A DNA stretch of 32,000 nt from Candidatus Lokiarchaeum ossiferum (GTDB taxonomy: Archaea > Asgardarchaeota > Lokiarchaeia > Sigyniarchaeales > Promethearchaeaceae), in NCBI GenBank assembly GCA_025839675.1, contig CP104013.1, forward strand, positions 2,940,001 through 2,972,000. The letters run 5' to 3'. Positions 2,688 through 28,841 of the stretch are shown here, piece by piece. The notes below the pieces were generated by a model, which worked only from the letters and a program-made list of their open reading frames with translations, made no database searches and was not told the DNA's origin. Both the position numbers and the translations under genes were made by a program. How positions within the stretch are numbered: the first letter of the stretch is position 1; every line of letters starts with the position of its first letter.

Positions 2688-4262
2688 TTAATAGGACACC
2701 TCCCGTAACCATGAGATATTACTTTGATACAAATCTCGAATATCTTCACGTTTAAGCTTTAACATAGCGAGTCGCTCTAATCCTAATCCCCATGCGAGAA
2801 CTCGAACAGGGTGCTTAATGCCCCATGCGTACGTAACTTCAGGTCGGAAAATACCCGATCCTCCCATTTCAAGCCATGCACCCAGTTCTTCACTGTATAC
2901 AGAAACTTCCATGGAAGGTTCAGTATATGGGAAAAATCCGGGGCGGGTGATCACTTTCTTGAATCCCATCCGGCGATAAAATTCAGTAATTTGACCAATT
3001 AGATCACTCAATGAGACATCTTCAGCAATCACGATGCCATCAATTTGCTGAAATTCAGCTAAGTGGGTGCGATCGACCTTTTCGTTCCGAAATACCCGAT
3101 CAATACAGAATACTTTGACAGGCAATTTTTGGTTTTCTAGCCCCACTTTTGCAAGATGACGAATAGTAGTTGCTGTAGTATGGGTGCGTAACAATAATTT
3201 TTTTGCTATATCTTCAGACCAATCATATCCCCACCCAGTAGATCCTGTATCACCTCCATTTTCATGGATATTTTTGATTTGGGACACATATTCCTTTTTA
3301 GGGAGGATTCCTTTGTTAGGTTTTTTAAGATAAAAGGTATCGTGCATTTCTCGAGCGGGATGGCCTTGGGGTTGATATAAACTATCAAAATTGTAAAAAG
3401 CTGTTTCGACAATTGGACCCCGAATTTCTTGAAATCCCATGGAAAAGAACACTTCACGAATTTGATTTTTCACAATCGTCATGGGATGCAACTTACCAAC
3501 TTGAAAGCGAGGTCCTTCAATCCCTACTTCATAATGTTTTAAATTCGCGAGTTTTTCTTTCCATTCACCAGATTTCAGCATATCGGAGGTGATCCTCAAT
3601 ACTTCTTCTTGTACTTCCTCGATCTCAGAAATTTTGATCTTCAGTCCTTTTTCGGTTAATTGAACAATTCTAACCGTTCCTTTTTCTCGACTAACCATTT
3701 TACGCTTGGTTAAGGTTTTGACTTCGTTTTGTAATTCTTTTGGTATGGAAGAGAGAGAAAGGGGTGAATCTTTAGTAAATAATTTTAAAAGATGTTCCAA
3801 AGAAGATTCTTCAGCAGCCTCACTGTAAATAAATATTTGATTTGTTCCAGCTGCATCTGAGGTCACTACCCATTTATTTTTTTTCATATTTGTGAGTGCA
3901 ATAAAGAAGATGTTTTTCTTAAACCCTAAAATCTTTGCAGCTTCAGCCGCTAACTCATCTAAATTCACTTCTTTTCGGCCATCTTTCACAAATAATTTGA
4001 ATAGTTGACGTTCGGGTAGTCCTTTTTCATAATACGAAAGTCCTTCTTTGTTTAATTTTAAGGATATAACTTCACTTTCGGAGAATGTTGCTAACCCATT
4101 TTGCTCTAAAGTATATACGGCGCCCGACATGAGTTTCTCATATCCTAAGTTAAGGTGCTTGCTCAAATCCCATGCTTCCATTGGTTTATTGAGCTTTTGC
4201 AACTCCTTAAGCACGTCCATATATTCCGTTTTTAACGCGATTTTCTGACTGGTGGGTGTCAT
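2688..4262 (-). CDS. pheS: Phenylalanine--tRNA ligase alpha subunit (archaeal/eukaryotic type with long N-terminal helical/winged-helix-like region)
   Basis: Class II aaRS signatures: GHPAREMHDTFYL, LLRTHTTATTIRHL, FCIDRVFRNE (motif 2), GLGLERLAML (motif 3). 524 aa, adjacent to pheT. Confidence 0.92.
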   Translation of the reverse strand: MTPTSQKIALKTEYMDVLKELQKLNKPMEAWDLSKHLNLGYEKLMSGAVYTLEQNGLATFSESEVISLKLNKEGLSYYEKGLPERQLFKLFVKDGRKEVNLDELAAEAAKILGFKKNIFFIALTNMKKNKWVVTSDAAGTNQIFIYSEAAEESSLEHLLKLFTKDSPLSLSSIPKELQNEVKTLTKRKMVSREKGTVRIVQLTEKGLKIKISEIEEVQEEVLRITSDMLKSGEWKEKLANLKHYEVGIEGPRFQVGKLHPMTIVKNQIREVFFSMGFQEIRGPIVETAFYNFDSLYQPQGHPAREMHDTFYLKKPNKGILPKKEYVSQIKNIHENGGDTGSTGWGYDWSEDIAKKLLLRTHTTATTIRHLAKVGLENQKLPVKVFCIDRVFRNEKVDRTHLAEFQQIDGIVIAEDVSLSDLIGQITEFYRRMGFKKVITRPGFFPYTEPSMEVSVYSEELGAWLEMGGSGIFRPEVTYAWGIKHPVRVLAWGLGLERLAMLKLKREDIRDLYQSNISWLREVSY

Positions 4263-4599
4263 GTTATTTCTCCACTACCTTAGTATTTTTTTCTTGATTA
4301 ATCAAATTTATTGAAAATATGGAAATCCACCATCATTACTGGTAGGAATGAGTTATGAGAATAGACACTGATTTCAATTATAAATGAAGATTGCAATTCA
4401 TGAAATCCAAAAGATAAGTGCCATTTTTCTTACTATCTATTTGGGGATCCTAGTGAAAGGATACCAAGATTTATACTGAATTAAATAATTTGAAAGTTTT
4501 TCATGGTTAGAGAAGGAGTTTTAAATCAATTTGGAAAAAATTGAAAAAAATCTTTTTTTTATGCACTTTTCTTTAAATCTCTTTTTGAGGTAAATCAGT

Positions 4600-12695: not shown

Positions 12696-14111
12696 GTGAT
12701 TCTAATCATATCATTTTTTCGATTTCTGGTAGAAAATATTCGAAAGAAAAAGTTGAATATACAAAGTGAAATGAATCTATTAATGGAAAATTTTTGGGAC
12801 TTTGCGAAGTATATAGAATTAAAATATAGATATGATACAACTCCAATGTATCGATCATTACTATCTATCGCAAATGGATTGAATTCACCATTTTTTGAGG
12901 GGAAAAAATTAAATCCTCAACAATTAATAACTAATTCCTTTGATTCCCCCACTACTCAAAAAGGGATCTCAGCTTTTTTTGATTCACCCCAAAAAAAAGA
13001 ATTTCGAGAGTGCTCTCAAGAATCGCTCATTTCTATTGGTTATTATGAACCATACACAAAATCGGCTCTTGATGAAGGTCAAAAACCCATTTTTGGACAT
13101 AAAATGATTATTCAATTTCATTTAGCAATCAGACATATAAAGTTGGGTTATAATATAATTAATCTAGAAGATGAATCCTTGATCGAGAAGATGCCAAAAT
13201 TACTATTATTCGTTTCTTCTACTATCTTAAGTAAAGCTGTGCAACTCAACTTGATTGAATATGTTAGGAAGGGAGGTCATTTATGCATTTTTGGAGATTT
13301 TCCAGTATGTGATGAACAACACCAAACCTATTCCTTAATAAAAGACGAGTACTCTAAAACCCAAAATAGTGGAAAAATCAAATATTTTAAAGGAAATCCC
13401 CTTACTTGTCGTAGAGGTATTCGATATTATCTCGAAGAATTTTCTTTGAAATATAAAAATCAAATATCTCGGCTCAGAATACCAAAAATTTTCTCACCTA
13501 TTAAGGAAAATCTTTCTTTTTCTAAAATTTCTGCAAATATCCTAAGAAAATTTAATCCAACAGAACTTCAAGGCGATAGTCTCAAATCGATCCACCTTCT
13601 CTTACGATTTCTTCAAAAACAAGGGATCACACGTAAAATTGATGTGTCAGTAAGAACAGAGTATATTTTCCGCCACAAAATTGAAGTCTTTGTTTATACC
13701 CATCCTGATAAGGATCTTCTCTACCTTTTTATTTTTAGCAGAGATACTAGCTGGACTCTACCCGTTTCGATTCACCTTTATATCCCAGAGCGTTCTTTTA
13801 GCTTGCGTGTCCGCACAAATATACTTGGACATACTTCACAAGTTCTCCGTATTGAAAATGGTGAATTGAATAATTTCATCTATACTGGGATAAATCCTAT
13901 TTTGCATACCAAAGCTCGGTTATATTTAAAAGTCAATAAAGATACGATTAAAACTTCTGATCCAGTTGATATCATTTATATTCGGAAAGAAAATAGTGCA
14001 GAGATTTATGCGGGCCATGGTAATTTTAAATATAACAAAAAAATATTCTTGAAAGGATTACAAGACCAACCCATTGTGGTTAAAAAAGGGGCTCACAAAA
14101 TTTCTTTTTAG
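12696..14111 (+). CDS. Hypothetical protein; central segment reminiscent of the GH42 beta-galactosidase trimerisation (class-I GATase-like) domain
   Basis: Long ORF with no overlapping alternative. KLLLFVSSTILSKAVQLNLIEYVRKGGHLCIFGDFP resembles the Glyco_hydro_42M pattern, but there is no room for a TIM-barrel catalytic domain. The track start is GTG 12696. The first ATG (MNLLMENFWDF) is at 12771. Confidence 0.5.
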   Translation: MILIISFFRFLVENIRKKKLNIQSEMNLLMENFWDFAKYIELKYRYDTTPMYRSLLSIANGLNSPFFEGKKLNPQQLITNSFDSPTTQKGISAFFDSPQKKEFRECSQESLISIGYYEPYTKSALDEGQKPIFGHKMIIQFHLAIRHIKLGYNIINLEDESLIEKMPKLLLFVSSTILSKAVQLNLIEYVRKGGHLCIFGDFPVCDEQHQTYSLIKDEYSKTQNSGKIKYFKGNPLTCRRGIRYYLEEFSLKYKNQISRLRIPKIFSPIKENLSFSKISANILRKFNPTELQGDSLKSIHLLLRFLQKQGITRKIDVSVRTEYIFRHKIEVFVYTHPDKDLLYLFIFSRDTSWTLPVSIHLYIPERSFSLRVRTNILGHTSQVLRIENGELNNFIYTGINPILHTKARLYLKVNKDTIKTSDPVDIIYIRKENSAEIYAGHGNFKYNKKIFLKGLQDQPIVVKKGAHKISF

Positions 14112-14265: not shown

Positions 14266-15219
14266 ATGATAATGGTTACAATAGCAGATGGAAGATATTC
14301 TCTTCCCAGTTCTTACCTTTATTCCAAAACCCAGCATGTTTTCTTGGATAAAGTGAAAAAAATTTGTGGTTTAGATCAAATCGGCTATGCTTTTCTTAAA
14401 AAGCCAACAGAAATGCAAATACTAGTTGATAAGGAAGTAAAGGTGGGAGAACCCTTTGTTGCAATAACAACGGATAGAGGGATTTCAACCTTAAATTCAC
14501 CCTGTTCGGGCATATTGAAGACAAAGCATGATGATGCTTTGGAAAAAATGGAAAATGATACCTATGAATATGGTATTCTTGAGTTTGAAGAAATAACTGA
14601 AATTGATACTGCATTAATTACTGGAGCAGACATTGAACCTTGGGCTAATCATGAGGTGCGGTCATTATTAAAAAATGAATATAGCTTCAAGGTAATTTTA
14701 ACCGGAGATTCAGCAGTTGGAAAGACGGCCATTAAAGTCCGCTTTACAGATGACTATTTTAAACAAGACTTAAAGACAACTTTGGGAGTCGATTTTGGTT
14801 CAAAAGAATTGAAGTGCGAATATTTAACAGAAGATATTCTATTTTCTGGGGTGTATAGATTTACTTCAAAAATGAACGTGTGGGATGCTGCAGGGCAAAG
14901 TCATTATGACAAAATTCGAGGCATGTACTACCGAGATGCTAAAGGAGCACTTCTGGTGTATGATGTGAACAATCCTGTATCATTTGATAATTTAGATAAA
15001 TGGATTGAAGAATTAGATGAAAATTTGGGGCATGTGCCTACTTTACTCATTGGGAATAAAACAGATTTGGAGAGATTGGTACCACTTGAAAAAGCCTTGG
15101 AATTTGCGAAAAACCATGGTTTTCTTTATGCAGAATGTTCAGCAAAAACGGGTGATAAAGTTGAGAATGTTTTTCGGAAGTTAGCCATAGAAATCTACAA
15201 AAAAGAAGAAAATTTGTAA
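14266..15219 (+). CDS. Rab/Ras-like small GTPase fused to an N-terminal GcvH-like (single hybrid motif) domain
   Basis: GTPase part (aa ~141-317): GDSAVGKT (G1), TLGVDF (switch I), WDAAGQ (G3), YYRDAKGALLVYDV, GNKTDL (G4), CSAKTG (G5). There is no C-terminal Cys. The N-terminal aa ~17-125 match glycine-cleavage H protein motif by motif (see finding). Confidence 0.85.
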   Translation: MIMVTIADGRYSLPSSYLYSKTQHVFLDKVKKICGLDQIGYAFLKKPTEMQILVDKEVKVGEPFVAITTDRGISTLNSPCSGILKTKHDDALEKMENDTYEYGILEFEEITEIDTALITGADIEPWANHEVRSLLKNEYSFKVILTGDSAVGKTAIKVRFTDDYFKQDLKTTLGVDFGSKELKCEYLTEDILFSGVYRFTSKMNVWDAAGQSHYDKIRGMYYRDAKGALLVYDVNNPVSFDNLDKWIEELDENLGHVPTLLIGNKTDLERLVPLEKALEFAKNHGFLYAECSAKTGDKVENVFRKLAIEIYKKEENL

Positions 15220-15255: not shown

Positions 15256-15735
15256 CTATATCGCTTTAATGTGTACCAAGTATTTATATAAAAGAGTGTT
15301 TAAATCAGGCTCAATTGATTCGTAAATAGACTTATTTGATCGATTGTGGAGAATTTGATCATGAAATTTAGTATAGAAGAGATCTAATCCCGTTTCATAG
15401 AAAGTTGAAATGTGATCTTTTATAATATTTGGTCGAAACATCATTGTCAGAATTAATCCATGTTTCGCAACAATATTCATCTCAATGTTCAAACCTTCGA
15501 TTAGGATACGTTGGATTTTTCCAACATTTTCTTCCCCAAATACATTTAACGCAGCTATGAAATTACTCATCAAAGGAATTTTTATATCAAAATCATCTGT
15601 AAAGGATTTTGAATATAAAATGTCACCGCCTTCACGTGCAATAAATATTCCAATTATGTATTTTTTCAATATTTTATGAAATTTAGAATTTTCAGATAGA
15701 TTTGTCATTGAAGATGAACATGTCGATTTATCCAT
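15256..15735 (-). CDS. Longin-like domain protein, paralog 1
   Basis: 159 aa with an ATG start. The hydrophobic pattern predicts beta-beta-alpha-beta-beta-beta-alpha-alpha. The N-terminal IIGIFIAREGGDILYSKSF resembles longin openings (cf. VAMP7 ILFAVVARGTTILAKH). 99/141 aligned residues are identical to the 17672..18154 protein (hand count). Confidence 0.7.
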   Translation of the reverse strand: MDKSTCSSSMTNLSENSKFHKILKKYIIGIFIAREGGDILYSKSFTDDFDIKIPLMSNFIAALNVFGEENVGKIQRILIEGLNIEMNIVAKHGLILTMMFRPNIIKDHISTFYETGLDLFYTKFHDQILHNRSNKSIYESIEPDLNTLLYKYLVHIKAI

Positions 15736-15880
15736 TCAAAACACTTTTACTATTAGGTATGATAAGCAATATTATAAAAATATCCATTTTTGAAAAGTAA
15801 CTCACAAATATAGGACGAAATCACATAATATGATATTGTTAATATTCTTTATAATACCGATAAGAAAAAACCCAAAAAAA

Positions 15881-17509
15881 TCACGAAAGATAACTTCGTT
15901 TCCAATCATCAATTCGGACCAAATTTGTCTTAATAGTCCGCGGACTTAACCATCGCAAGATATTGAGCTTAGAGCCTGCTTTATCATTGGTACCTGATGC
16001 ACGAGCTCCCCCAAAGGGTTGTCTGCCGACAATAGCACCAGTAGGTTTATCATTAATGTAAAAATTACCTGCGGCATATCTTAACACTTTCTTACTTAGA
16101 GCAATTGCTTCAATATCCGTTGCAAAAATAGCTCCAGTTAGAGCATATGGAGAAGTTGCATCGCATATATGAAGGATCTGCTCAAATTCGTTTTCAGGAT
16201 ATACATAAACCGTAACAATTGGACCAAATATTTCTTCTTCCATCAATCGAGCTCGCGAATCTTTGGCTAGAATAACAGTTGGGTCAATGAACCAGCCTTT
16301 TGTCTCATCAATCTCTCCTCCTGTAATTATTTCATAAGATTCAGGATGATTTTTCGCATAGTTTAAATACTCAACAATTTTTCTAAAGGATTTTTCATCA
16401 ATGATAGAACCACCGGCTACTTCCAAGGAGGAAACGTCCCCATATTTGAAATTTGGGAGGGTTTCCAAAATTATTTGCTTGTAAGAAGACCATTGATTCT
16501 CTGGAATATAGACTCGGGAGGCTGCAGAACATTTCTGTCCCTGATACTCAAAACTCCCACGTATTATATTCATAGCAGTATGTTGTAGTGGGGCAGATTG
16601 ATGAACCATAATAAAATCTTTCCCACCAGTTTCTCCGACAATACGTGGAAAATTTCTGTAACTCCGCAAATTTAACCCGACTTGTTGCCAAATTTTGATC
16701 AAAGTATCATAACTTCCAGTGAAATGGATTCCTGCGAGATTGGGATTATTTATGACAATTCCAGCATCTTGGCTATCAAACGGAACAAAATTAATAACAC
16801 CTGGAGGCAATCCAGATTCCAATAAGACTTCCATGATCTTATAATTGGCAAAAATCACACTTCGAGCAGGTTTCCACAATACCACATTTCCTGCTACAGC
16901 AGGTGCTGCCGCAAGATTGCCACCTATTGAATAAAAATTGAAGGGTGGAATAGCCAGAATAAATCCTTCAAGAGGACGCCATTCAAATTCATTTTCTTCC
17001 CCAACATAACTTTTAGGTTGAATTGCAAACAATTCTTCAAGATATTTGGAGTTATAATTAAGAAAATCAATCATTTCAGCTAAATCAATTTCTGCTTCAT
17101 AGGGAGTTTTGGATTGGTTTAACATTATAGCAGCAATATTTTCAATTCGTTTTGGTCCAGCAAGGAGTTCAGCCGCTTTACGAAATATATTCACACGATC
17201 ACATGCATCTAATTCTGACCATTGTTCGTGGGCATCTAATGCTGACGAAATTGCATCTTTCAAGTGTTCTTTAGTTGCTAAATGAGCCTTAGCAAGGATT
17301 TGAGAGTGATCATGAGGAGAAACAATATCAATCACTTTTGAAGACCGTATTTTTTTCCCATTGATAATTAGCGGAATTTCTTCAACATGGTTTTTCATAC
17401 GTTCGAGTTCTTTAAGGAGCATTGAGCGCTCTTTGGAATTTTTTTTATAAGTTGGGATTTGATCAACATCATTTTCTACTATTTGGGGTACACATTCCAT
17501 ACAAAACAC
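15881..17509 (-). CDS. 1-pyrroline-5-carboxylate (L-glutamate gamma-semialdehyde) dehydrogenase, ALDH4-like
   Basis: ALDH superfamily. PLEGFILAIPPFNFYSIGGNLAAAPAVAGNVVLWKP and FEYQGQKCSAASRVYIP closely mirror ALDH4A1/P5CDH motifs as I recall them, and VGETGGKDF carries the catalytic Glu region. The track start is GTG 17509. The likelier start is ATG 17500, with GAGGTG 7 nt upstream. Confidence 0.85.
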   Translation of the reverse strand: MFCMECVPQIVENDVDQIPTYKKNSKERSMLLKELERMKNHVEEIPLIINGKKIRSSKVIDIVSPHDHSQILAKAHLATKEHLKDAISSALDAHEQWSELDACDRVNIFRKAAELLAGPKRIENIAAIMLNQSKTPYEAEIDLAEMIDFLNYNSKYLEELFAIQPKSYVGEENEFEWRPLEGFILAIPPFNFYSIGGNLAAAPAVAGNVVLWKPARSVIFANYKIMEVLLESGLPPGVINFVPFDSQDAGIVINNPNLAGIHFTGSYDTLIKIWQQVGLNLRSYRNFPRIVGETGGKDFIMVHQSAPLQHTAMNIIRGSFEYQGQKCSAASRVYIPENQWSSYKQIILETLPNFKYGDVSSLEVAGGSIIDEKSFRKIVEYLNYAKNHPESYEIITGGEIDETKGWFIDPTVILAKDSRARLMEEEIFGPIVTVYVYPENEFEQILHICDATSPYALTGAIFATDIEAIALSKKVLRYAAGNFYINDKPTGAIVGRQPFGGARASGTNDKAGSKLNILRWLSPRTIKTNLVRIDDWKRSYLS

Positions 17510-17671
17510 CTCTAATTTTGGAATTTTTCTATATCAAGGACTTAATGTAAAACGAGTAATCTGACTAGTAAAAACTATCAAATCAATATTAAACAAACCC
17601 ATTGCAATAATAAGAAGAATAGGGGATTTGTAAACAAAAAGAAAGAATTATGGAATAAAAAGTAATATCAA

Positions 17672-18154
17672 TTAAAGAGCTTCAATATGCACAAGATATT
17701 CAAATAATAACTCGAACATTTTTGGGTCAAATTGCTCATAAATTGTCTGATTAGTCCGGTTTTGGGCGATTTGTTCTTTAAACTCATCATAAAACATATC
17801 CAATCCAATTTCATAATATTTTGAGATATGATCTTTGACCATATGAGGACGAAACATCATTGTTAGAACCAAGCCATGCTTCGCAACAATATTCATTTCA
17901 ATATCTAAACCTTCTATTAAAATACGCTTGATTTTACCGACATTTTCTTCCCCAAATACATTTAGAGCGGCGATAAAATTACTCATTAAAGGAAGTTTTA
18001 ATCCATCTTGAAATGATTTGGAATACAAAATATCCCCTCCATCTCGAGCTACAAATATTCCCACAAGATACTTTTCCAAAATTTTTTGAAATTTCACATT
18101 TATTGGAACGTAGGGATGATGCGAGGACAGAAAAGAAGTTTTTGTATTTTCCAT
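17672..18154 (-). CDS. Longin-like domain protein, paralog 2
   Basis: Paralog of 15256..15735. The track start at 18190 is a TTG inside a palindromic repeat. I prefer ATG 18154-18152, which is preceded by AGGTGAT (good anti-16S match) 5 nt upstream. Confidence 0.7.
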   Translation of the reverse strand: MENTKTSFLSSHHPYVPINVKFQKILEKYLVGIFVARDGGDILYSKSFQDGLKLPLMSNFIAALNVFGEENVGKIKRILIEGLDIEMNIVAKHGLVLTMMFRPHMVKDHISKYYEIGLDMFYDEFKEQIAQNRTNQTIYEQFDPKMFELLFEYLVHIEAL

Positions 18155-18182
18155 AAAAATCACCTTGGCGATATGATTCGTT

Positions 18183-18230
18183 TTGATCAAATAACCGTTT
18201 GATCAAATAATTGTTTGATCAATATATAAA
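18183..18230 (-). promoter_or_regulatory. Candidate promoter/operator: TATA box (TTTATATATT, complement of 18221-18230) followed by three TTGATCAA palindromes at 16-bp spacing
   Basis: TTGATCAA occurs at 18183-18190, 18199-18206 and 18215-18222. The extended unit is GTTTGATCAAATAA. It lies 29-76 nt upstream of the ATG at 18154. Confidence 0.5.
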
Positions 18231-18287: not shown

Positions 18288-19409
18288 TTATTTGCCAATC
18301 AAACCAGATTTTTTCGCAATTTTCAAGAAAGCAAGTTGTAAAATGAAGGTTTCAAATATTGGGGATAATTCTATGATAGGAGAATTGAAGTTAATCATTA
18401 GGACATCGTAATCAGATTTATAAAATGCAGATAAACTCGGATTATTACAAAGAATTACAACTTTTCCCGCTCGAATTTTAATTTGATCAATTAAACGAAT
18501 GAGTGTGTTGTTAGATTCTTCTCCTTCTCTATCTCCAACTAGCATCATACAATTGATAGATTTATCTTCAATTCTGCGTTCAAAAACTTGAAATGGTCCA
18601 TGGAAAAAATGCCCCAAAGCAATTCCTTCAGCGAACTTGCGATGATATGTTTTAGCAATCAGAGCTGCAAACTTCGCACAAGCCAAGGATGATGGATCTT
18701 TTGAGATGAAATATAAATATTGAAGCTCATAGCCCAAAAAATCAGAAATTTGATCAACACTTTTCTCCCAAGATTCACGAAAATCTTTGAGTTCAGAGAT
18801 CAATTCAAAAGATCCTTTCTGGATCGTATCTAAATTAAAATCGGTTCCCACTAACATTTGAGAAACTAAATAAAGCACAAATAAGGTATTTCCAAATGAT
18901 TTCAAGCCAATAACTAATTCTGAATCAACATAAGTATGGAAAACTTGACCGCATTTTTTTGCAACGGGAGAATTTTGCTCATTAGTTATGAGCCAAAGCA
19001 AATTTCTATCAATTTTGAGTAAAGAAAGGTGATCTAGTGCTTTTAATATTAAGCGCGATGACCCAGATCGGGATATAAAAATATAAAGTGTATCTTGGGA
19101 ATCTTCAGGCAAGAAATAATCGTAAAATTCGGTTAATTCGATACATTCCCATGTAAAATCTAAAGCATAGGGTGAATTCATGAATACAAATCGAGGTATG
19201 AAACTGGCGAAGTGATTAAACGTATTTCCAATAAAAACGACTTTTGAAAATTTAATTTGGGAAACGATTTGAATGATACTTTGGACCATTTTCTTACCTT
19301 CTCCAGTAGTATAAGAATTCACACAATCTTGTAATACTTCAGGAGCATTGAGAAAATTCTTAAGTAGGTCATTATAAGAAAAAGGCCAAATTTGCGTTTC
19401 TGGGGTCAC
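18288..19409 (-). CDS. Double-SIS-domain sugar-phosphate isomerase/deaminase-like protein (GlmS isomerase-domain / FrlB / AgaS-like)
   Basis: VVFIGNTFNHFAS and FISRSGSSRL (SIS S-x-S-G motif) mark the first half. LYFISKDPSSLACAKFAALIAKT...FFHGP marks the second. The GTG start overlaps the upstream stop (GTGA), with GGAGGT 9-14 nt upstream. Confidence 0.8.
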   Translation of the reverse strand: MTPETQIWPFSYNDLLKNFLNAPEVLQDCVNSYTTGEGKKMVQSIIQIVSQIKFSKVVFIGNTFNHFASFIPRFVFMNSPYALDFTWECIELTEFYDYFLPEDSQDTLYIFISRSGSSRLILKALDHLSLLKIDRNLLWLITNEQNSPVAKKCGQVFHTYVDSELVIGLKSFGNTLFVLYLVSQMLVGTDFNLDTIQKGSFELISELKDFRESWEKSVDQISDFLGYELQYLYFISKDPSSLACAKFAALIAKTYHRKFAEGIALGHFFHGPFQVFERRIEDKSINCMMLVGDREGEESNNTLIRLIDQIKIRAGKVVILCNNPSLSAFYKSDYDVLMINFNSPIIELSPIFETFILQLAFLKIAKKSGLIGK

Positions 19410-20488
19410 TTTTCAATTACCTCCCGGCGTAGAGCTTGATCTAAAAGCAAATATTGTAATACAATCGTCTCAAAAATAGGAGCTAAAGAAGGATTTTTTG
19501 TAGTGTGTTCAAAAACCCAAACATTTTCATTTGATCTCCCCAACGATGATAACTCTCGGCTGTTATTAATAAGCATCACTTTTCCTGAGCCTAATTTTTT
19601 ACTAACCATCTCAATCAAGCGAAGGGTATCTTCAAGATTAGATTCATCCCCAATAATTAGCACACATCGAAAATCTTCTGGATTAGATTGCACTATTTGA
19701 TAGGGGCCATGGAGAAAAAGACCAATATTTGTTCCTTCTCCATAAATACGGGCATAAGATTTGACACTAAAAGCCCCCCTATACGCAGTTGATAGAGAAG
19801 CACCTTTGGAAATGAAATAAAGAAAATTATAATCTGTTCCTAAAAACTCTGTCAGTGATTTAACATGAAATTCCCAATCTTGGCCGTAAAATTTTATTTC
19901 AAAAATTAATTGGCGAATTTCTTCTTCAATTTTAGACGAGATGACATCGCGATTCATAAATGCTCTGCCTATAAAGTAGAGAACCAGCATTGCATTGACA
20001 TAAGATTTTGTTCCGATAACTTCTTCATCCCCCACAACAGTAGGTAAAATAAAATGAGAGTTTTGAGCCACGAAAGATTCCAGATTATTTGATACACCCC
20101 AAATTTTCTGAGGATCCAGATTTTTATCTTGTAAATGTTGAATTGCAAGTTTTATTTGAGGAGAATTCCCTGAATGCGAAACAAAGCAAAAAACACATTT
20201 TTGCTTCAGCCTACGGGGAGTAAAATATTTGAGAAATTCATCCCCCTCATAAATTTCACAAGTTTTCTTTCTACGATTGATATAGTAAAAAGGGATATAT
20301 GAAGCGAAGAAATTATAACTATGCCCCACAAAAATGATTTGTTCAATATTTTTGGATTGAACATATTGTTTTATTTGATTAATCTTTTGTTTTCCCTCAA
20401 ACGACAAATAATAACGCAAACACTTGAGCATCGCCTTGGGAATGGATTGAAAATCATCCAAGATAGTATCAAATTTCAACTTGGTCAT
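19406..20488 (-). CDS. Double-SIS-domain sugar-phosphate isomerase/deaminase-like protein, paralog of the downstream gene
   Basis: IIFVGHSYNFFAS, FVSHSGNSPQ, LYFISKGASLSTAYRGAFSVKS...LHGP. Same architecture and size as 18288..19409. Confidence 0.8.
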   Translation of the reverse strand: MTKLKFDTILDDFQSIPKAMLKCLRYYLSFEGKQKINQIKQYVQSKNIEQIIFVGHSYNFFASYIPFYYINRRKKTCEIYEGDEFLKYFTPRRLKQKCVFCFVSHSGNSPQIKLAIQHLQDKNLDPQKIWGVSNNLESFVAQNSHFILPTVVGDEEVIGTKSYVNAMLVLYFIGRAFMNRDVISSKIEEEIRQLIFEIKFYGQDWEFHVKSLTEFLGTDYNFLYFISKGASLSTAYRGAFSVKSYARIYGEGTNIGLFLHGPYQIVQSNPEDFRCVLIIGDESNLEDTLRLIEMVSKKLGSGKVMLINNSRELSSLGRSNENVWVFEHTTKNPSLAPIFETIVLQYLLLDQALRREVIEK

Positions 20489-20937: not shown

Positions 20938-22227
20938 ATGTTCGATATTGATGATTATTTTACCGATTTTATGAAGAATGAAAAAATTTTTGAAGATCGC
21001 GATGTATTACGCCCGGAATTTATACCATCTATTTTACCACATCGAGATTTGCAAGTGAAGCGAATTGCCGAAATCGTGGCGTGTACCCTTAAAAATTCTA
21101 TGCCTTCAAATATTTTCATTTTTGGTAAAACCGGAACAGGAAAAACAGCCGTTGTAGGTCATGTTAGCGAACGGTTAAATTATCAATGTCGAAAAGCGGG
21201 AATTACAGAATCTCAATGGATATTTTTAAATTGCCAGGAGGTCAATACAGGATATCGGATCTTAGCTAAAATTTGTGCGGAGATAGACCCTAACGATCCC
21301 GTTCCAATTGCAGGATGGCCCATTGACGTCATTTTCGATAAGCTCGTAGAAAAACTGGATAAATTTGTCGAAGGAATATGTTTTCTTGTTTTAGACGAAA
21401 TAGATATTTTAGTTAAAAATACTAAAAAATCGCATGATGTCCTATATAACTTGGCCCGTATCAACTCTCGCTTGAAAAAAGGGCGAGTGAACCTAATTGG
21501 CATTTCTAATGTATTAAATTTCAAAAGTGCCTTGGATCCACGGGTTCTTAGCAGTCTTGGAGAAGAAGAAATTGTGTTTCCAGCATATAATGCCATGGAA
21601 CTATCAGATATTTTACGCCAACGTGCCCAAAAAGCTTTTAATGAAAATGCACTCGACGATAGTGTGATACCTCTCTGTGCTGCCTTGGCGGCAAAAGAGC
21701 ATGGAGATGCGCGAAAAGCATTAGATTTACTTCGTAAAGCCGGAGAATTAGCTGAACGCCGCAATACACTCACAGTAACCTCTGATCATGTTTATTTTGC
21801 CCAAGCAGATATCGAAAAAGATAAAATGCAAGAATACTGTGAAGCTTTGCCACTCCAAAGTAAAACTATTTTATTAAGCATCTACCATATGCAGAAGTAC
21901 AGAGGGGAACAAGCCATAATTACTGGAGATATCTATAATGCATATTCTGAAATTTCCACTATGGTTCCCGGTCTAAATAAACTTACCCAACGGCGTGTAT
22001 CAGAATTAATCCGAGAATTAGATTTATCCGGGATGGTAAATGCCCGCGTAAAATCAAATGGACGTTATGGTCGGACCAAATTTATCAAGCTAAATATCCC
22101 CCTTAATGATACATCAAAATACTTAAAAAATGAACGCCGCTTAAACGAGCTAATCAATTATCGCCCCATTTGTGTAGGACAAAAAACGATCCAGCACAAT
22201 GGAACAAAATTTCGCAAGTTAGCATAA
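20938..22227 (+). CDS. cdc6: Orc1/Cdc6 replication initiator (AAA+ ATPase with C-terminal winged helix)
   Basis: Walker A GKTGTGKTAV, Walker B FLVLDEIDIL, sensor region HGDARKALDLLRKAGELA and a C-terminal wHTH-like segment RRVSELIRELDLSGMV. 429 aa. Confidence 0.93.
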   Translation: MFDIDDYFTDFMKNEKIFEDRDVLRPEFIPSILPHRDLQVKRIAEIVACTLKNSMPSNIFIFGKTGTGKTAVVGHVSERLNYQCRKAGITESQWIFLNCQEVNTGYRILAKICAEIDPNDPVPIAGWPIDVIFDKLVEKLDKFVEGICFLVLDEIDILVKNTKKSHDVLYNLARINSRLKKGRVNLIGISNVLNFKSALDPRVLSSLGEEEIVFPAYNAMELSDILRQRAQKAFNENALDDSVIPLCAALAAKEHGDARKALDLLRKAGELAERRNTLTVTSDHVYFAQADIEKDKMQEYCEALPLQSKTILLSIYHMQKYRGEQAIITGDIYNAYSEISTMVPGLNKLTQRRVSELIRELDLSGMVNARVKSNGRYGRTKFIKLNIPLNDTSKYLKNERRLNELINYRPICVGQKTIQHNGTKFRKLA

Positions 22228-25166: not shown

Positions 25167-28100
25167 ATGCCCGTCGTAATGTCCGAGAAAAGTAAAAAAT
25201 ATTTTGATAAAATTGAAGAAGATGTCAATAAAATTTATGAATTTGCCAATAAAGCTCGTGCTATAGGAATTGATCCAGCTCCTGAAGTGGAATCACCTCC
25301 TGCCCGAGATATGGCAGGACGGGTTGAAAAGTTAGTTGGACCTGAAGGAATCGCCCAATATTTGCGGGAGTGGAAGGAAGCAGGAGAAGATCAAGATGAA
25401 AGTTGTTTTCGAGCAATGGATTGGATCATCGATGGGAAATTTGGAAAGCAATATGATCCCAATGAAGCGGTTGATCTAGCAATTCGTGTCGCTTTAGCAA
25501 TAAAAACGGAAGGAGTTGTCTCAGCACCCTTAGAAGGTATTGCAAAAGTCGTCATTCGAGAAAATTTAGCAGGGGGAGAACCGTACTTAGCACTTTATTT
25601 TGCAGGACCAATTCGAGCAGCAGGGGGAACAGTCCAAGCTTTTGCAGTATTGTGTGCTGAACACGTTCGTCGAAAAATGGGGATCGCAGAATGGAAAGCA
25701 ACCCCCGATGAAGTGGGACGATTTGTTGAAGAAGTGAAACTTTATGATCGAATTATGAACTTGCAATATCCCTCCACACAAGAAGAGTTAGCCTTTGCTG
25801 TCGAACATCTGACGATTGAACTTAATGGAGATGCAACAGAGACCCAAGAAGTTTCAGCTTATCGAGATTTGCAACGTATTGAAACGAATTTTGTACGGGG
25901 AGGACCTTGTTTAGTTTTGAATGATGGGGTTTTGCTTAAGTCTAAGAAAATTTTACGTGTTATTGATAAGCGGAAGATCGAGGGGTGGGATTGGCTCCGA
26001 AAATTAAAAAAATTGGCTCATGCAGATACTAAAAAGAAAATAGATGAGGACGGGAAAGATAAAGCTAAGGATTATGGAGGAGACACTTACAAAGGTAAAA
26101 AGATCATTGAGGAAGAAGAAAAAGTTGAAGTTATAGCTGAATCCCCAGTGCAAAAACGCCAAGAATACTTGAATGAAAAAAATCCGCCTCTCAATAAATT
26201 CATTGCAGACATTATTGCTGGTCGCCCCGTTTTTGCTTATCCCTCTCGAATTGGAGGTCATCGCATAAGATATGGACGATCACGCAATACAGGTCTTGCC
26301 GCATGTGGCACGCATCCATCCCAAATGATTCTATTAGAGAGATATATGGCTATTGGCACCCAGATCCGAATAGAAAGACCGGGGAAAAGTGGGTCTACGA
26401 TGCCTGTCACATCTATCGAACCACCAATCGTTTTAATGAAAAATGGCGATGTAAAGCAACTTTGGGACATAAAGGAAGCTGCTGATATTGCGGACAATCG
26501 ATTAACGGCTAAAATTCTCTTTTTAGGAGATATGCTTTTTGGGTATGGAGAATTTGCAGAAAATAATCACACAGTTCTTCCATCAGGCTATTGTGAAGAA
26601 TGGTGGGCAGTGGAATTAGAAGATAAAATTCAAAAGATGACCGCTGACGGAGGCACACCCTTTACCGATCTTCCAGAAGATCTATCTCAACCAATAATTG
26701 AAAAAATGATCACAAATCCTTTTGATGAAATTCCCAATGGTCGCCAAGCTCTTGAACTTTCACGTAAGTATGATGTGGGAATCCATCCTCGCAGTTTAGA
26801 TCATTGGGGAAATATTAATGCGGTTGATCTTTTGGCAATTCGGAAGCAATTTGGTTTAGGACTTTGTAAATTATTCAAAGTTGCCAATACATCTGATCTT
26901 TCTATTGAAGCGCCATCTTTAACCCAATTAGAAACTAAGTTCCAGGATGGATTTGACCTTCCCATAACTTCCGAAACCAAAAAATTCTTTGAAACCGCTT
27001 ACACCCCCCATCAAAATTACGATTCATATATACATATTGATCCAAACCGTGCGATTATTTTTTATGAGCTCTTTGGATTTGGGACATCATCCGTTTATAC
27101 TTCCGAAGCAGAACAGAAAGCTCCCGAATTGACGGCATTGGATCTATTTCCTTACCTTACTTCTATCCGAGTTAATGATAAAGCCCCCCACTACATGGGA
27201 AGTCGGATGGGCCGCCCCGAAAAAGCAAAAGAGCGCAAAATGCGCCCTCCTGTTCATGGTTTATTTCCCATCGGACATGATTCCAAACTTCAACGGAGCT
27301 TTCAATCCGCTGCAGGAGTAGCCTACATTGAAGTGGAATTGGGACAAAAATCATGTCCAAAATGTAATTCCAATACATTTTTAAACAAATGTCCAAAATG
27401 TGGAACCTTGACCAACTTTAAAAAAATTTGTTCCCGTTGTAACAAACTGTACGATCAACAAGACACCGAATGTCCCGATTGTAATAGCTTTTTATCCAGT
27501 ACTTCCCTAAAAAAAATCCCTTTCAAGAAATATTTTGAAGTGGCCGCCAGTCATATTGCCAAGACCATCCCCTCCTTGAAAGGCGTTAAAGGTATGACTT
27601 CCGAATACAAAATTCCAGAACCGATCGAAAAGGGTATTCTACGAGGAATTCATGATGTATATGTTTATAAAGATGGTACAATTCGAGCCGATGCTACTGA
27701 TATACCCTTAACCCATTTTACTTGCCGTGAAATCAATACATCGGTCGAGAAAATCCTAGAACTCGGGTATGATCTTGATATCTATGGGAAACCCATTACC
27801 GATGAAAATCAGGTAATCGAGATAAAAGTGCAAGATGTTCTCCTCACCCATCACTTAGGTGATTATTTCGTCAAAGTGGCTAATTTTGTGGATGATGAAC
27901 TTCATTACCTCTACAAACAACCTAAATTTTATAATGTAAAAGATAAATATGATCTTATTGGCCACTATATGGCAGGCTTAGCCCCCCACACTTCGGCCGC
28001 TATCATTGGACGGTTAATTGGCTTTACATATGCGGAATCAGGCTATGCTCATCCTTATTGGCACGCCGCGAAACGTAGAAACTGTGATGGTGATGAAGAC

Positions 28101-28841
28101 GGAATCATGTTGCTCCTGGAATGTTTGCTGAATTTCTCAATGTATTATCTCCCTTCTTCTTTGGGAGGCAAAATGGATGCACCTTTAGTCGTTTCTTTGC
28201 TACTGGATCCCTTAGAAGTAGATGGAGAATCTCATAACGTCGATTATGCAAGCAAATATCCTCTCCGGTTTTATGAAGAAGCACTTACCTACAAAAAACC
28301 TAGCGACATGGACAGTTATATGGTTCTTTTCAAACATAAACTCCGTACCGAAGCGCAATTTGAAGGGTCAATGTTTACCCACCCAACTTCTTCGATTAAT
28401 CTCGGGCCTCGAAAATCTGCCTATACGACACTGGGTACAATGACTGAGAAAATTGAATCGCAATTGTACATGGCAAAAACAATTACTGCGGTTGATGCAA
28501 AGGATGTGGCCCGAAAGGTCATCTCCTCCCATTTTGCTCCAGATATTTTGGGAAATCTTCGCGCATTCTCTACCCAAGGGTTCCGATGTATAAAATGTGG
28601 CGCGAAATATCGTCGAGTGCCTATATCGGGAAAATGTAATAAATGTCGAGCCGGAAAATTGCTCATGACAGTCCATGCGGGGGGGGTCATCAAATATCTT
28701 CCAAAAGCTCAAAAACTTATTAAAGAATTTGATTTAGGGGACTATACTGAACAACGCTGGCAAATAATCGAAAAAAATGTAATGTCACTGACCAATAATC
28801 CCCGTGTGAAGCAAAAATCAATCAAAAGTTTCTTCAAATAA
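25167..28841 (+). CDS. polC: DNA polymerase D (Pol II) large catalytic subunit DP2
   Basis: 1224 aa. The catalytic double-psi-barrel signature is HPYWHAAKRRNCDGDEDG. Zn clusters: CPKCNSNTFLNKCPKCG, CSRCNKLYDQQDTECPDC, CIKCGAKYRRVPISGKCNKC. The sequence is contiguous, with no intein-like insertion. Confidence 0.95.
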   Translation: MPVVMSEKSKKYFDKIEEDVNKIYEFANKARAIGIDPAPEVESPPARDMAGRVEKLVGPEGIAQYLREWKEAGEDQDESCFRAMDWIIDGKFGKQYDPNEAVDLAIRVALAIKTEGVVSAPLEGIAKVVIRENLAGGEPYLALYFAGPIRAAGGTVQAFAVLCAEHVRRKMGIAEWKATPDEVGRFVEEVKLYDRIMNLQYPSTQEELAFAVEHLTIELNGDATETQEVSAYRDLQRIETNFVRGGPCLVLNDGVLLKSKKILRVIDKRKIEGWDWLRKLKKLAHADTKKKIDEDGKDKAKDYGGDTYKGKKIIEEEEKVEVIAESPVQKRQEYLNEKNPPLNKFIADIIAGRPVFAYPSRIGGHRIRYGRSRNTGLAACGTHPSQMILLERYMAIGTQIRIERPGKSGSTMPVTSIEPPIVLMKNGDVKQLWDIKEAADIADNRLTAKILFLGDMLFGYGEFAENNHTVLPSGYCEEWWAVELEDKIQKMTADGGTPFTDLPEDLSQPIIEKMITNPFDEIPNGRQALELSRKYDVGIHPRSLDHWGNINAVDLLAIRKQFGLGLCKLFKVANTSDLSIEAPSLTQLETKFQDGFDLPITSETKKFFETAYTPHQNYDSYIHIDPNRAIIFYELFGFGTSSVYTSEAEQKAPELTALDLFPYLTSIRVNDKAPHYMGSRMGRPEKAKERKMRPPVHGLFPIGHDSKLQRSFQSAAGVAYIEVELGQKSCPKCNSNTFLNKCPKCGTLTNFKKICSRCNKLYDQQDTECPDCNSFLSSTSLKKIPFKKYFEVAASHIAKTIPSLKGVKGMTSEYKIPEPIEKGILRGIHDVYVYKDGTIRADATDIPLTHFTCREINTSVEKILELGYDLDIYGKPITDENQVIEIKVQDVLLTHHLGDYFVKVANFVDDELHYLYKQPKFYNVKDKYDLIGHYMAGLAPHTSAAIIGRLIGFTYAESGYAHPYWHAAKRRNCDGDEDGIMLLLECLLNFSMYYLPSSLGGKMDAPLVVSLLLDPLEVDGESHNVDYASKYPLRFYEEALTYKKPSDMDSYMVLFKHKLRTEAQFEGSMFTHPTSSINLGPRKSAYTTLGTMTEKIESQLYMAKTITAVDAKDVARKVISSHFAPDILGNLRAFSTQGFRCIKCGAKYRRVPISGKCNKCRAGKLLMTVHAGGVIKYLPKAQKLIKEFDLGDYTEQRWQIIEKNVMSLTNNPRVKQKSIKSFFK

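Follow-up and report, generated by a model that had tools for sequence, protein, structure and literature searches.

What do two small paralogous proteins do beside a Rab-like GTPase in an Asgard archaeon, and does their position reflect a partnership with it? The question is raised by a 32,000-nt stretch of the genome of Candidatus Lokiarchaeum ossiferum (assembly GCA_025839675.1, contig CP104013.1, positions 2,940,001–2,972,000 of the forward strand), hereafter the window, within which all positions are given unless another locus is named. A preliminary description, made from the sequence alone, had noted there two minus-strand open reading frames (ORFs), here called paralogs A and B, on either side of a gene for 1-pyrroline-5-carboxylate (P5C; L-glutamate gamma-semialdehyde) dehydrogenase, had read them as longin-like proteins and had drawn a parallel with the paired longin domains that act on small GTPases in eukaryotes. 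Both ORFs are present, and the best explanation of the locus as a whole, to which we give a probability of about 0.6, is that A and B are longin-type partners of the neighbouring GTPase, a Rab-like protein whose N-terminal domain is related to the glycine-cleavage H protein (GcvH), and that they control its state or its localisation.

The GTPase neighbour of the family

Paralog A, which is identical at 100% to family member P0001, and paralog B, which corresponds to P0006, belong to a family that is divided by a neighbour-joining (NJ) tree into two clades, both paralogs falling in clade 1. Synteny was analysed by tblastn and hidden Markov model scans of fetched loci, among which 17 hold family members (L001–L016 and L021). 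The neighbourhood to which the preliminary description had drawn attention recurs in related genomes: a GTPase of the same subfamily, GcvH-like domain included, adjoins a family member in 12 of these 17 loci, and both Lokiarchaeia in culture, L. ossiferum and P. syntrophicum MK-D1, have the pair. Without exception, a clade-2 gene is the next gene downstream of the GTPase gene and has the same orientation; the measured gaps are 5–75 nt (5 nt in L006, 20 nt in L021, where the two MK-D1 genes occupy 3001–3954 and 3975–4484, 22 nt in L003 and 75 nt in L001). Clade 1 adjoins the GTPase only in Lokiarchaeum-like loci (the window, L001, L002 and L008); in MK-D1 and other Promethearchaeum genomes (L009–L011), and likewise in L005 and L007, its genes sit elsewhere. 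L. ossiferum also carries a second copy of the GTPase, 62% identical to that of the window, and 22 nt beyond it comes P0021, the third member of the family in this genome. NEF87_002034 is a clade-2 protein, and the GTPases found adjacent to family members include NEF87_002033 and the NEF87_002490 type.

A natural gene fusion joins the same two modules. Protein P0042 (384 aa, contig JAANSX010762094.1) is encoded by one uninterrupted ORF and consists of a clade-1 domain, a helical linker and a G domain, the first being 43% identical to B and the last 51% identical to the GTPase of the window; the family domain stands where the GcvH-like domain would be. Among the more remote proteins found by profile search (see below), P0086 is a Gtr1/RagA-like GTPase with a family-like domain at its C-terminus, and P0088 and P0095 are Arf/Ras-like GTPases with such a domain at the N-terminus. 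Taken together, the conserved neighbourhood and the one natural fusion make a functional link between the family and the Rab-like GTPase well supported at the level of gene and protein sequences, and we take this subfamily of Rab-like GTPases, with its GcvH-like domain at the N-terminus, to be the ancestral and conserved partner of the family.

Pairs of family domains have formed more than once. In addition to A and B, independent tandem duplicates of clade 2 are found in L012 (70% identical) and L013 (60% identical), and P0043 contains two family domains in one chain that are 44% identical to each other. To our knowledge, all known longin and roadblock modules are used as dimers, and the repeated, independent formation of pairs, which fits such dimeric use of longin/roadblock modules without proving dimers, suggests that the family domains work in pairs.

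The GTPase itself belongs to the Ras family (Pfam Ras, E = 2e-46), in agreement with the Rab-like gene previously noticed beside one of the paralogs; it is convergent with A, and 36 nt separate the two stop codons (37 bp by the earlier count). The nearest match of its G domain is the structure of a Thorarchaeota Rab (7ezb, 4.7e-35), followed by Ypt32, Rab10, Rab11 and Rab1, and the switch II glutamine (DAAGQ) is retained. Ortholog alignments of the protein begin at M3 (MVTIADGR). The N-terminal ~128 aa (14272–14655, plus strand) are conserved and related to GcvH: a profile of nine orthologs of this domain returned eleven GcvH structures before any other (best E = 2.3e-4), and Pfam GCV_H matches seven of the nine orthologs (best E = 4.3e-6). 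Since the position of the lipoyl-lysine holds R, S, N or Q, the sequences give no reason to expect lipoylation of this domain. The GcvH–Rab-like architecture is represented by 251 homologs at E ≤ 1e-20, which are assigned by their source names to Lokiarchaeia, Helarchaeota, Hodarchaeota and Sigynarchaeota; nothing relevant on GcvH–GTPase fusions in Asgard archaea or on the locus tags came up in the literature that was searched.

Two further observations concern this GTPase. The β2-β3 interswitch hairpin of its G domain carries an insertion of ~10 residues (YLTEDILFSGVYRFTSK; 14800–14870, plus strand, residues ~180–200), which the subfamily has kept throughout; the same region of eukaryotic Rabs contacts guanine nucleotide exchange factors (GEFs) and effectors. 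In three genera, genes for HdrB/CCG, HdrA-like, FlpD/MvhD and ferredoxin proteins, forming a heterodisulfide-reductase-like cluster, are located beside the GTPase–clade-2 pair (Table 1); the cluster and the GcvH-like domain hint at a redox link of the GTPase.

Fold and evolution of the two paralogs

The structure of the family domain was predicted by AlphaFold2 from a 30-sequence alignment. The model obtained for paralog A (predicted local distance difference test, pLDDT, 82; predicted template modelling score, pTM, 0.79) contains a longin-type core, as had been anticipated for the single proteins, and is composed of helices (H) and strands (E) in the order H17–26, E27–34, E39–44, H53–65, E76–79, E84–91, E94–100, H110–129 and H135–155. 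The resulting topology, α0-β-β-α-β-β-β-α-α, reproduces the order of elements of the longin core, which in longin domains build a five-stranded sheet with one helix on one side and the two C-terminal helices on the other, and adds to it an N-terminal helix (H17–26) before β1, conserved across the family, with I22 invariant and Y26 nearly invariant. Comparison of the model with the Protein Data Bank (PDB) by Foldseek gave longin-type proteins as the best matches, namely AP2 mu and sigma, zeta-COP and VAMP7 (query template modelling score, TMq, 0.56–0.58, up to 148–152 aligned columns), with further longin-type matches to Mon1–Ccz1, TRAPP, BLOC-3 and Sec22b; the E-values of the longin matches, 2.5e-4 to 4e-3, are of modest significance. 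Roadblock proteins (MK-D1 Roadblock2/3, LAMTOR and MglB) rank lower, with TMq values of 0.36–0.41 over ~90–104 columns, and a profilin reading was rejected, as no profilin is present among the top 50 hits.

Matches to curated models were obtained among remote members. The family profile gave only chance-level matches against PDB sequences, and its search against 1.84 billion cluster representatives returned only 77 proteins at E ≤ 1e-3. Among 57 of these 77, weak Pfam matches were observed to Fuz_longin_1 in 10 (best E = 2.7e-8), to MAPKK1_Int in 12 (best E = 6e-4, those listed individually having ≤20 bits against a cut-off of 25 bits), to Robl_LC7 in four, and to Longin and Clat_adaptor_s in two each; the roadblock-type matches are all under the gathering score, at ≤20 bits. 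One of the proteins found in this search, P0089 (E = 3.4e-6), lies above the Fuz_longin_1 gathering score (30.0 vs 26.1 bits) and aligns with the family profile (A1) in hhalign with a probability of 95.8% (E = 8e-9), so that the sequence tie of A and B to the curated longin models runs via P0089 and is not direct. On the basis of the two long C-terminal helices of the model, the longin-first ranking in Foldseek and this transitive tie to Fuz_longin_1, we assign the predicted fold of the family to the longin/roadblock superfamily and, within it, to the longin type, with the N-terminal helix as one roadblock-like trait. The preliminary reading, longin rather than roadblock, thus stands for the core topology and is borne out by the structural matches and the tie through P0089; the conserved N-terminal helix had not been foreseen.

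A sub-threshold match of A and B to TRAM in the Pfam and NCBIfam searches was treated as noise. The motif FGEENVGK bears a merely superficial likeness to the P-loop GDSAVGKT and was not read as such, although the likeness misled MAFFT. Five members of 267–309 aa (P0031, P0034, P0037, P0039 and P0040) have long, Lys/Ser-rich and disordered-looking N-terminal extensions before the longin-like domain, which could be membrane- or polyanion-binding tails. As far as the sequence searches reach, this is a small family, with members seen in Lokiarchaeia alone.

The identity of the two paralogs, put at ~70% by a hand alignment (99 of 141 residues), is 67% by BLASTP (104 of 156 residues, E = 1e-78). Their aligned codons are 70% identical, with 47% identity at third positions, a non-synonymous divergence (dN) of 0.23 and a synonymous divergence (dS) of ~2.9, which is saturated; A and B are therefore the products of an old duplication under strong purifying selection, and not a recent repeat. 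The duplication is best explained as having arisen within the Lokiarchaeum lineage. In a related species (L002), the genes are arranged as SIS-SIS-B'-ALDH-A' (ALDH, the aldehyde dehydrogenase gene), convergent with the GTPase, so the arrangement is stable. Identity between the two species is 95.6% for B' and B against 84% for A' and A, from which A is the faster-evolving copy and B the slower one. In the NJ tree, B groups with P0003, P0007 and the L002 gene at 3539–4066.

Proposed mode of action and competing explanations

Conservation within the family is highest in helix α1, the loop that follows it and β3-β4, and ten of the 20 invariant residues lie at positions 55–76, that is, in α1 and in the loop F66-G67-E-E69-N-V-G72-K-I74-x-R76. 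In longin and roadblock complexes such as MglB–MglA, Ragulator–Rag and Mon1–Ccz1–Ypt7, the dimer interface and the platform for the GTPase are formed by the central helix together with the edge strand next to it. By analogy, A and B may dimerise via their central helix α1 and edge strand β3, and the GTPase would dock with its switch regions on the face that α1 and the invariant FGEENVGK-I-x-R loop form; binding would then control its nucleotide state, in the manner of a GTPase-activating protein (GAP) or of a GEF, or its localisation. Identity between the two paralogs is 80% for residues 27–105 and 56% for residues 106–159, the part that comprises helices α2 and α3. Considering this pattern together with the central-helix platform of the solved complexes, we propose that the two paralogs keep a near-identical putative dimer/GTPase face and diverge on the opposite face (α2, α3), and that, as homo- or heterodimers, they most likely link one and the same GTPase to distinct partners further downstream.

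Several observations weigh against such a partnership. Neither A nor B matched a longin or roadblock model, either in Pfam (E ≤ 1) or in NCBIfam. In the window, A is not in a shared operon with the GTPase, and B is at a distance of 2.4 kb, beyond the SIS genes. No GTPase was found within 5 kb in five of the 17 family loci, all of clade 1 (L005, L007, L009 of MK-D1, L010 and L011). From the side of the GTPase, no family gene stands beside the GcvH–Rab-like GTPases outside Lokiarchaeia (L018 and L019), nor beside the third copy found in L. ossiferum (L020). The P0042 fusion has been seen once, on a single 1.9-kb contig, a homolog search having returned P0042 alone, and its AlphaFold2 model (pLDDT 81.8, pTM 0.55), made from an alignment (A4, MAFFT) in which the family rows are misplaced over their final 11 residues, shows no confident packing of one domain on the other.

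These points have to be set against three other ways of reading the locus. A and B could be roadblock/LC7 proteins of the MglB kind, acting as a homodimeric GAP that positions the catalytic residues of the GTPase itself, as MglB does for MglA; the UniRef name of B ('Roadblock/LC7 domain...') says as much, the helix before β1 is found in roadblock proteins as well, the clade-2 arrangement of GTPase followed by partner mirrors the mglBA operon, and the GTPase keeps its switch II glutamine, to which may be added the roadblock structures returned by Foldseek and the weak MAPKK1_Int and Robl_LC7 matches of remote members. We nevertheless consider it unlikely, since Robl_LC7 is matched by neither paralog at E ≤ 1, the roadblock-type matches of remote members all stay below the gathering score, the two long C-terminal helices (110–129 and 135–155) suit a longin and not a roadblock protein, whose topology, α-β-β-α-β-β-β(-α), has one such helix at most, and the roadblock structures align over fewer columns and with lower TMq values than the longins. 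The N-terminal helix is then the sole roadblock-like trait, and the UniRef label of B, which has no direct model match, is not supported.

A different explanation looks away from the GTPase altogether, to the five co-oriented minus-strand genes SIS-SIS-B-P5C dehydrogenase-A, and takes A and B as small-molecule-sensing or regulatory subunits of these sugar and amino-acid genes, the adjacency to the GTPase being inherited order without coupling. Besides their common strand in the window, L001 and L002 have a SIS-SIS pair with a clade-1 gene after it in the same orientation, several clade-1 loci have no GTPase, and the longin fold belongs to a broader PAS/GAF group that includes ligand binders (PMC4917890). 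The intergenic gaps of 97–162 nt with T-runs and separate TATA-like boxes, however, argue for separate transcription units; the order GTPase-SIS-SIS is kept in MK-D1 without a family gene at that place, and P5C dehydrogenase is missing from L001. Moreover, the family domain is fused to GTPases and never to SIS or ALDH domains, and the sister clade 2 is strictly tied to the GTPase, which leaves this explanation improbable. The preliminary description had also suggested that the pair, as direct repeats, could drive deletion or amplification of the P5C dehydrogenase gene by recombination, and the third reading is that the pair matters mainly in this way. The gene is indeed flanked by direct repeats of 277 nt (77% identical, 2416 bp apart) and 98 nt (74% identical, 2410 bp apart), wholly inside the coding regions, and the 25-nt identical core reported earlier is exact (15524–15548 = 17940–17964, encoding LNVFGEENV); yet it is the longest identical tract shared by A and B, the codons have diverged to saturation as described above, and the B-ALDH-A order persists in the related species with proteins that are 3–16% diverged. 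We rejected a recombination hotspot on the codon divergence of the two paralogs, and repeat-driven loss or amplification of the gene appears very improbable indeed. The partnership with the GcvH–Rab-like GTPase is thus the reading that we retain.

Gene content of the window and known counterparts

The coordinates of the features are collected in Table 1.

Table 1. Features of the window and of comparable loci; positions refer to the window unless a locus is named.
Feature	Position	Strand	Description
Candidate partner GTPase	14272..15219 (ORF start 14266/14272)	plus	GcvH-like N-terminal domain (~128 aa) and Rab-like G domain
Paralog A	15256..15735	minus	NEF87_002491, 159 aa; single-domain longin-type protein, family clade 1
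P5C (L-glutamate gamma-semialdehyde) dehydrogenase	15881..17509	minus	Between A and B; TIGR01236, 730 bits vs 613.6 cut-off
Paralog B	17672..18154	minus	NEF87_002493, 160 aa; longin-type protein, family clade 1
Putative promoter/operator of B	18166..18230	minus	TATA-like TTTATATATT, then three TTGATCAAAC repeats with 16-nt spacing, extending nearly as far as the start codon
Two SIS-domain (GlmS isomerase-like) paralogs	18288..20488	minus	Co-oriented with B and upstream of it; matched by Pfam SIS and NCBIfam glmS-like models
Loci with adjacent GTPase	L001, L002, L003, L004, L006, L008, L012–L016, MK-D1 locus L021		
Heterodisulfide-reductase-like cluster	L003 201–4617, L006 1–3847, L021 1–2953		Inverted orientation in MK-D1

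The mechanical ORF of B runs to a TTG at 18190, and the ATG at 18154 is favoured by the N-termini of homologs (MENTK, MEHTK and MENSK). The gene enclosed by the paralogs is P5C dehydrogenase, as previously proposed, its score being well above the TIGR01236 cut-off. It is present in L002 and missing at the equivalent position of L001, where a clade-1 and a clade-2 gene abut, and its G+C content is 0.39 vs 0.30–0.32 in the flanks; the gene may have been inserted between tandem duplicates and is probably a passenger. The SIS pair adjoins the orthologous GTPase in L001 (3612–5877), L002 (1262–3462) and the MK-D1 locus L022 (3963–6172). On its other flank, the GTPase of the window is accompanied by a GlmA-like fragment protein (12696–14111) and a CitMHS transporter, and an Orc1/Cdc6 homolog (20938–22227, plus strand) and the large subunit DP2 of DNA polymerase D (25167–28841, plus strand) are encoded a few kb from the locus.

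Judging from its upstream region, A appears to have its own promoter, with a TATA-like TTTTTATAAT ~35 nt upstream and a T-run after the ALDH stop codon. The TTGATCAAAC motif found before B occurs 10 times in the window vs 1.7 expected, and its repeats are kept upstream of the B ortholog in L002 (3500–3560); they are probably an operator for a transcription factor. The upstream region of A has no TTGATCAAAC repeats.

Asgard archaea were already known to have proteins of this sort. The Lokiarchaeum genome that was first assembled as a composite is reported to encode 41 longin-like domains and 38 roadblock domains, with GTPase fusions among them (PMC4917890, which also summarises Klinger et al., 2016), and there are solved structures of roadblock dimers, as well as a model of a longin domain, from Asgard archaea (Tran et al., 2024, PMC10933270). 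The family of A and B shares with these proteins the group of organisms, the fold superfamily, a size of ~150 aa, the predicted dimers and the existence of GTPase-fused relatives; it differs from them in being unseen by Pfam and NCBIfam models, in its extra N-terminal helix, in having been seen in Lokiarchaeia alone and in its synteny with one GTPase subfamily. What is new is a distinct family, seen only in Lokiarchaeia, that the models miss, and its conserved pairing with a GcvH–Rab-like GTPase, in both cultured Lokiarchaeia.

Among better-characterised systems, MglB–MglA resembles the clade-2 loci in that a prokaryotic small GTPase gene lies directly beside a small gene of the longin/roadblock superfamily (at 5–75 nt in clade 2), whereas A and B are of the longin type and the GTPase beside them is Rab-like, not MglA-like, and carries a GcvH-like domain. 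With Mon1–Ccz1, Fuzzy–Inturned and HPS1–HPS4, whose first longin domains include those described by Fuz_longin_1 and Intu_longin_1, the family has in common the longin fold, a Rab-like partner and the occurrence of paralog pairs; Mon1–Ccz1, BLOC-3 and TRAPP are among its Foldseek matches, and remote relatives reach the Fuz_longin_1 gathering score. These tri-longin Rab GEFs, in which two paralogous first longin domains pair to form the platform for Rab binding and nucleotide exchange, however, have three consecutive longin domains per subunit vs one in A and B, which also lack a direct Pfam match. It is tempting to see in A and B, or in a clade-1/clade-2 pair, a minimal two-longin heterodimer and putative GEF of the GcvH–Rab-like GTPase, which would be the single-domain archaeal counterpart, and possibly the precursor, of these three Rab GEFs, with a metabolic or redox cue reaching the switch through the GcvH-like domain; we regard this extended scenario as decidedly unlikely.

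FLCN–FNIP, NPRL2–NPRL3, C9orf72–SMCR8 and their Asgard look-alikes (PMC12290439) offer another parallel, as paired longin domains that act on a small GTPase, much as is proposed for A and B. A GP motif directly before β2 has been proposed as the mark of GAP-type longins (PMC12290439). The family has a conserved glycine just before β2, as GAP-type longins do, and an invariant R76 at the start of β3, which may be a candidate for their catalytic arginine finger facing the nucleotide pocket, but the motif is G-D in place of GP: the sequence between β1 and β2 is R-x-G-G-D, in which G37 is invariant, D38 is conserved in at least 90% of members and proline is absent, and a GAP-type longin of the FLCN, SMCR8, C9orf72 and NPRL2 kind was rejected.

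As the family is missed by current Pfam and NCBIfam models, censuses of Asgard longins may undercount these proteins. In Asgard archaea, small GTPases number in the dozens, as do longin and roadblock proteins, and we know of essentially no match between an Asgard regulator and its GTPase. According to Tran et al. (2024, PMC10933270), the GTPase genes of MK-D1 do not in general share an operon with genes for roadblock, longin or TRAPPC3 proteins, so the layout of a genome is seldom a guide in matching regulators with GTPases. The family of A and B is an exception, in which a defined Rab-like GTPase subfamily is matched to a longin-type partner by adjacency and by one fusion, and it provides a concrete pair for studying GTPase regulation before eukaryotes.

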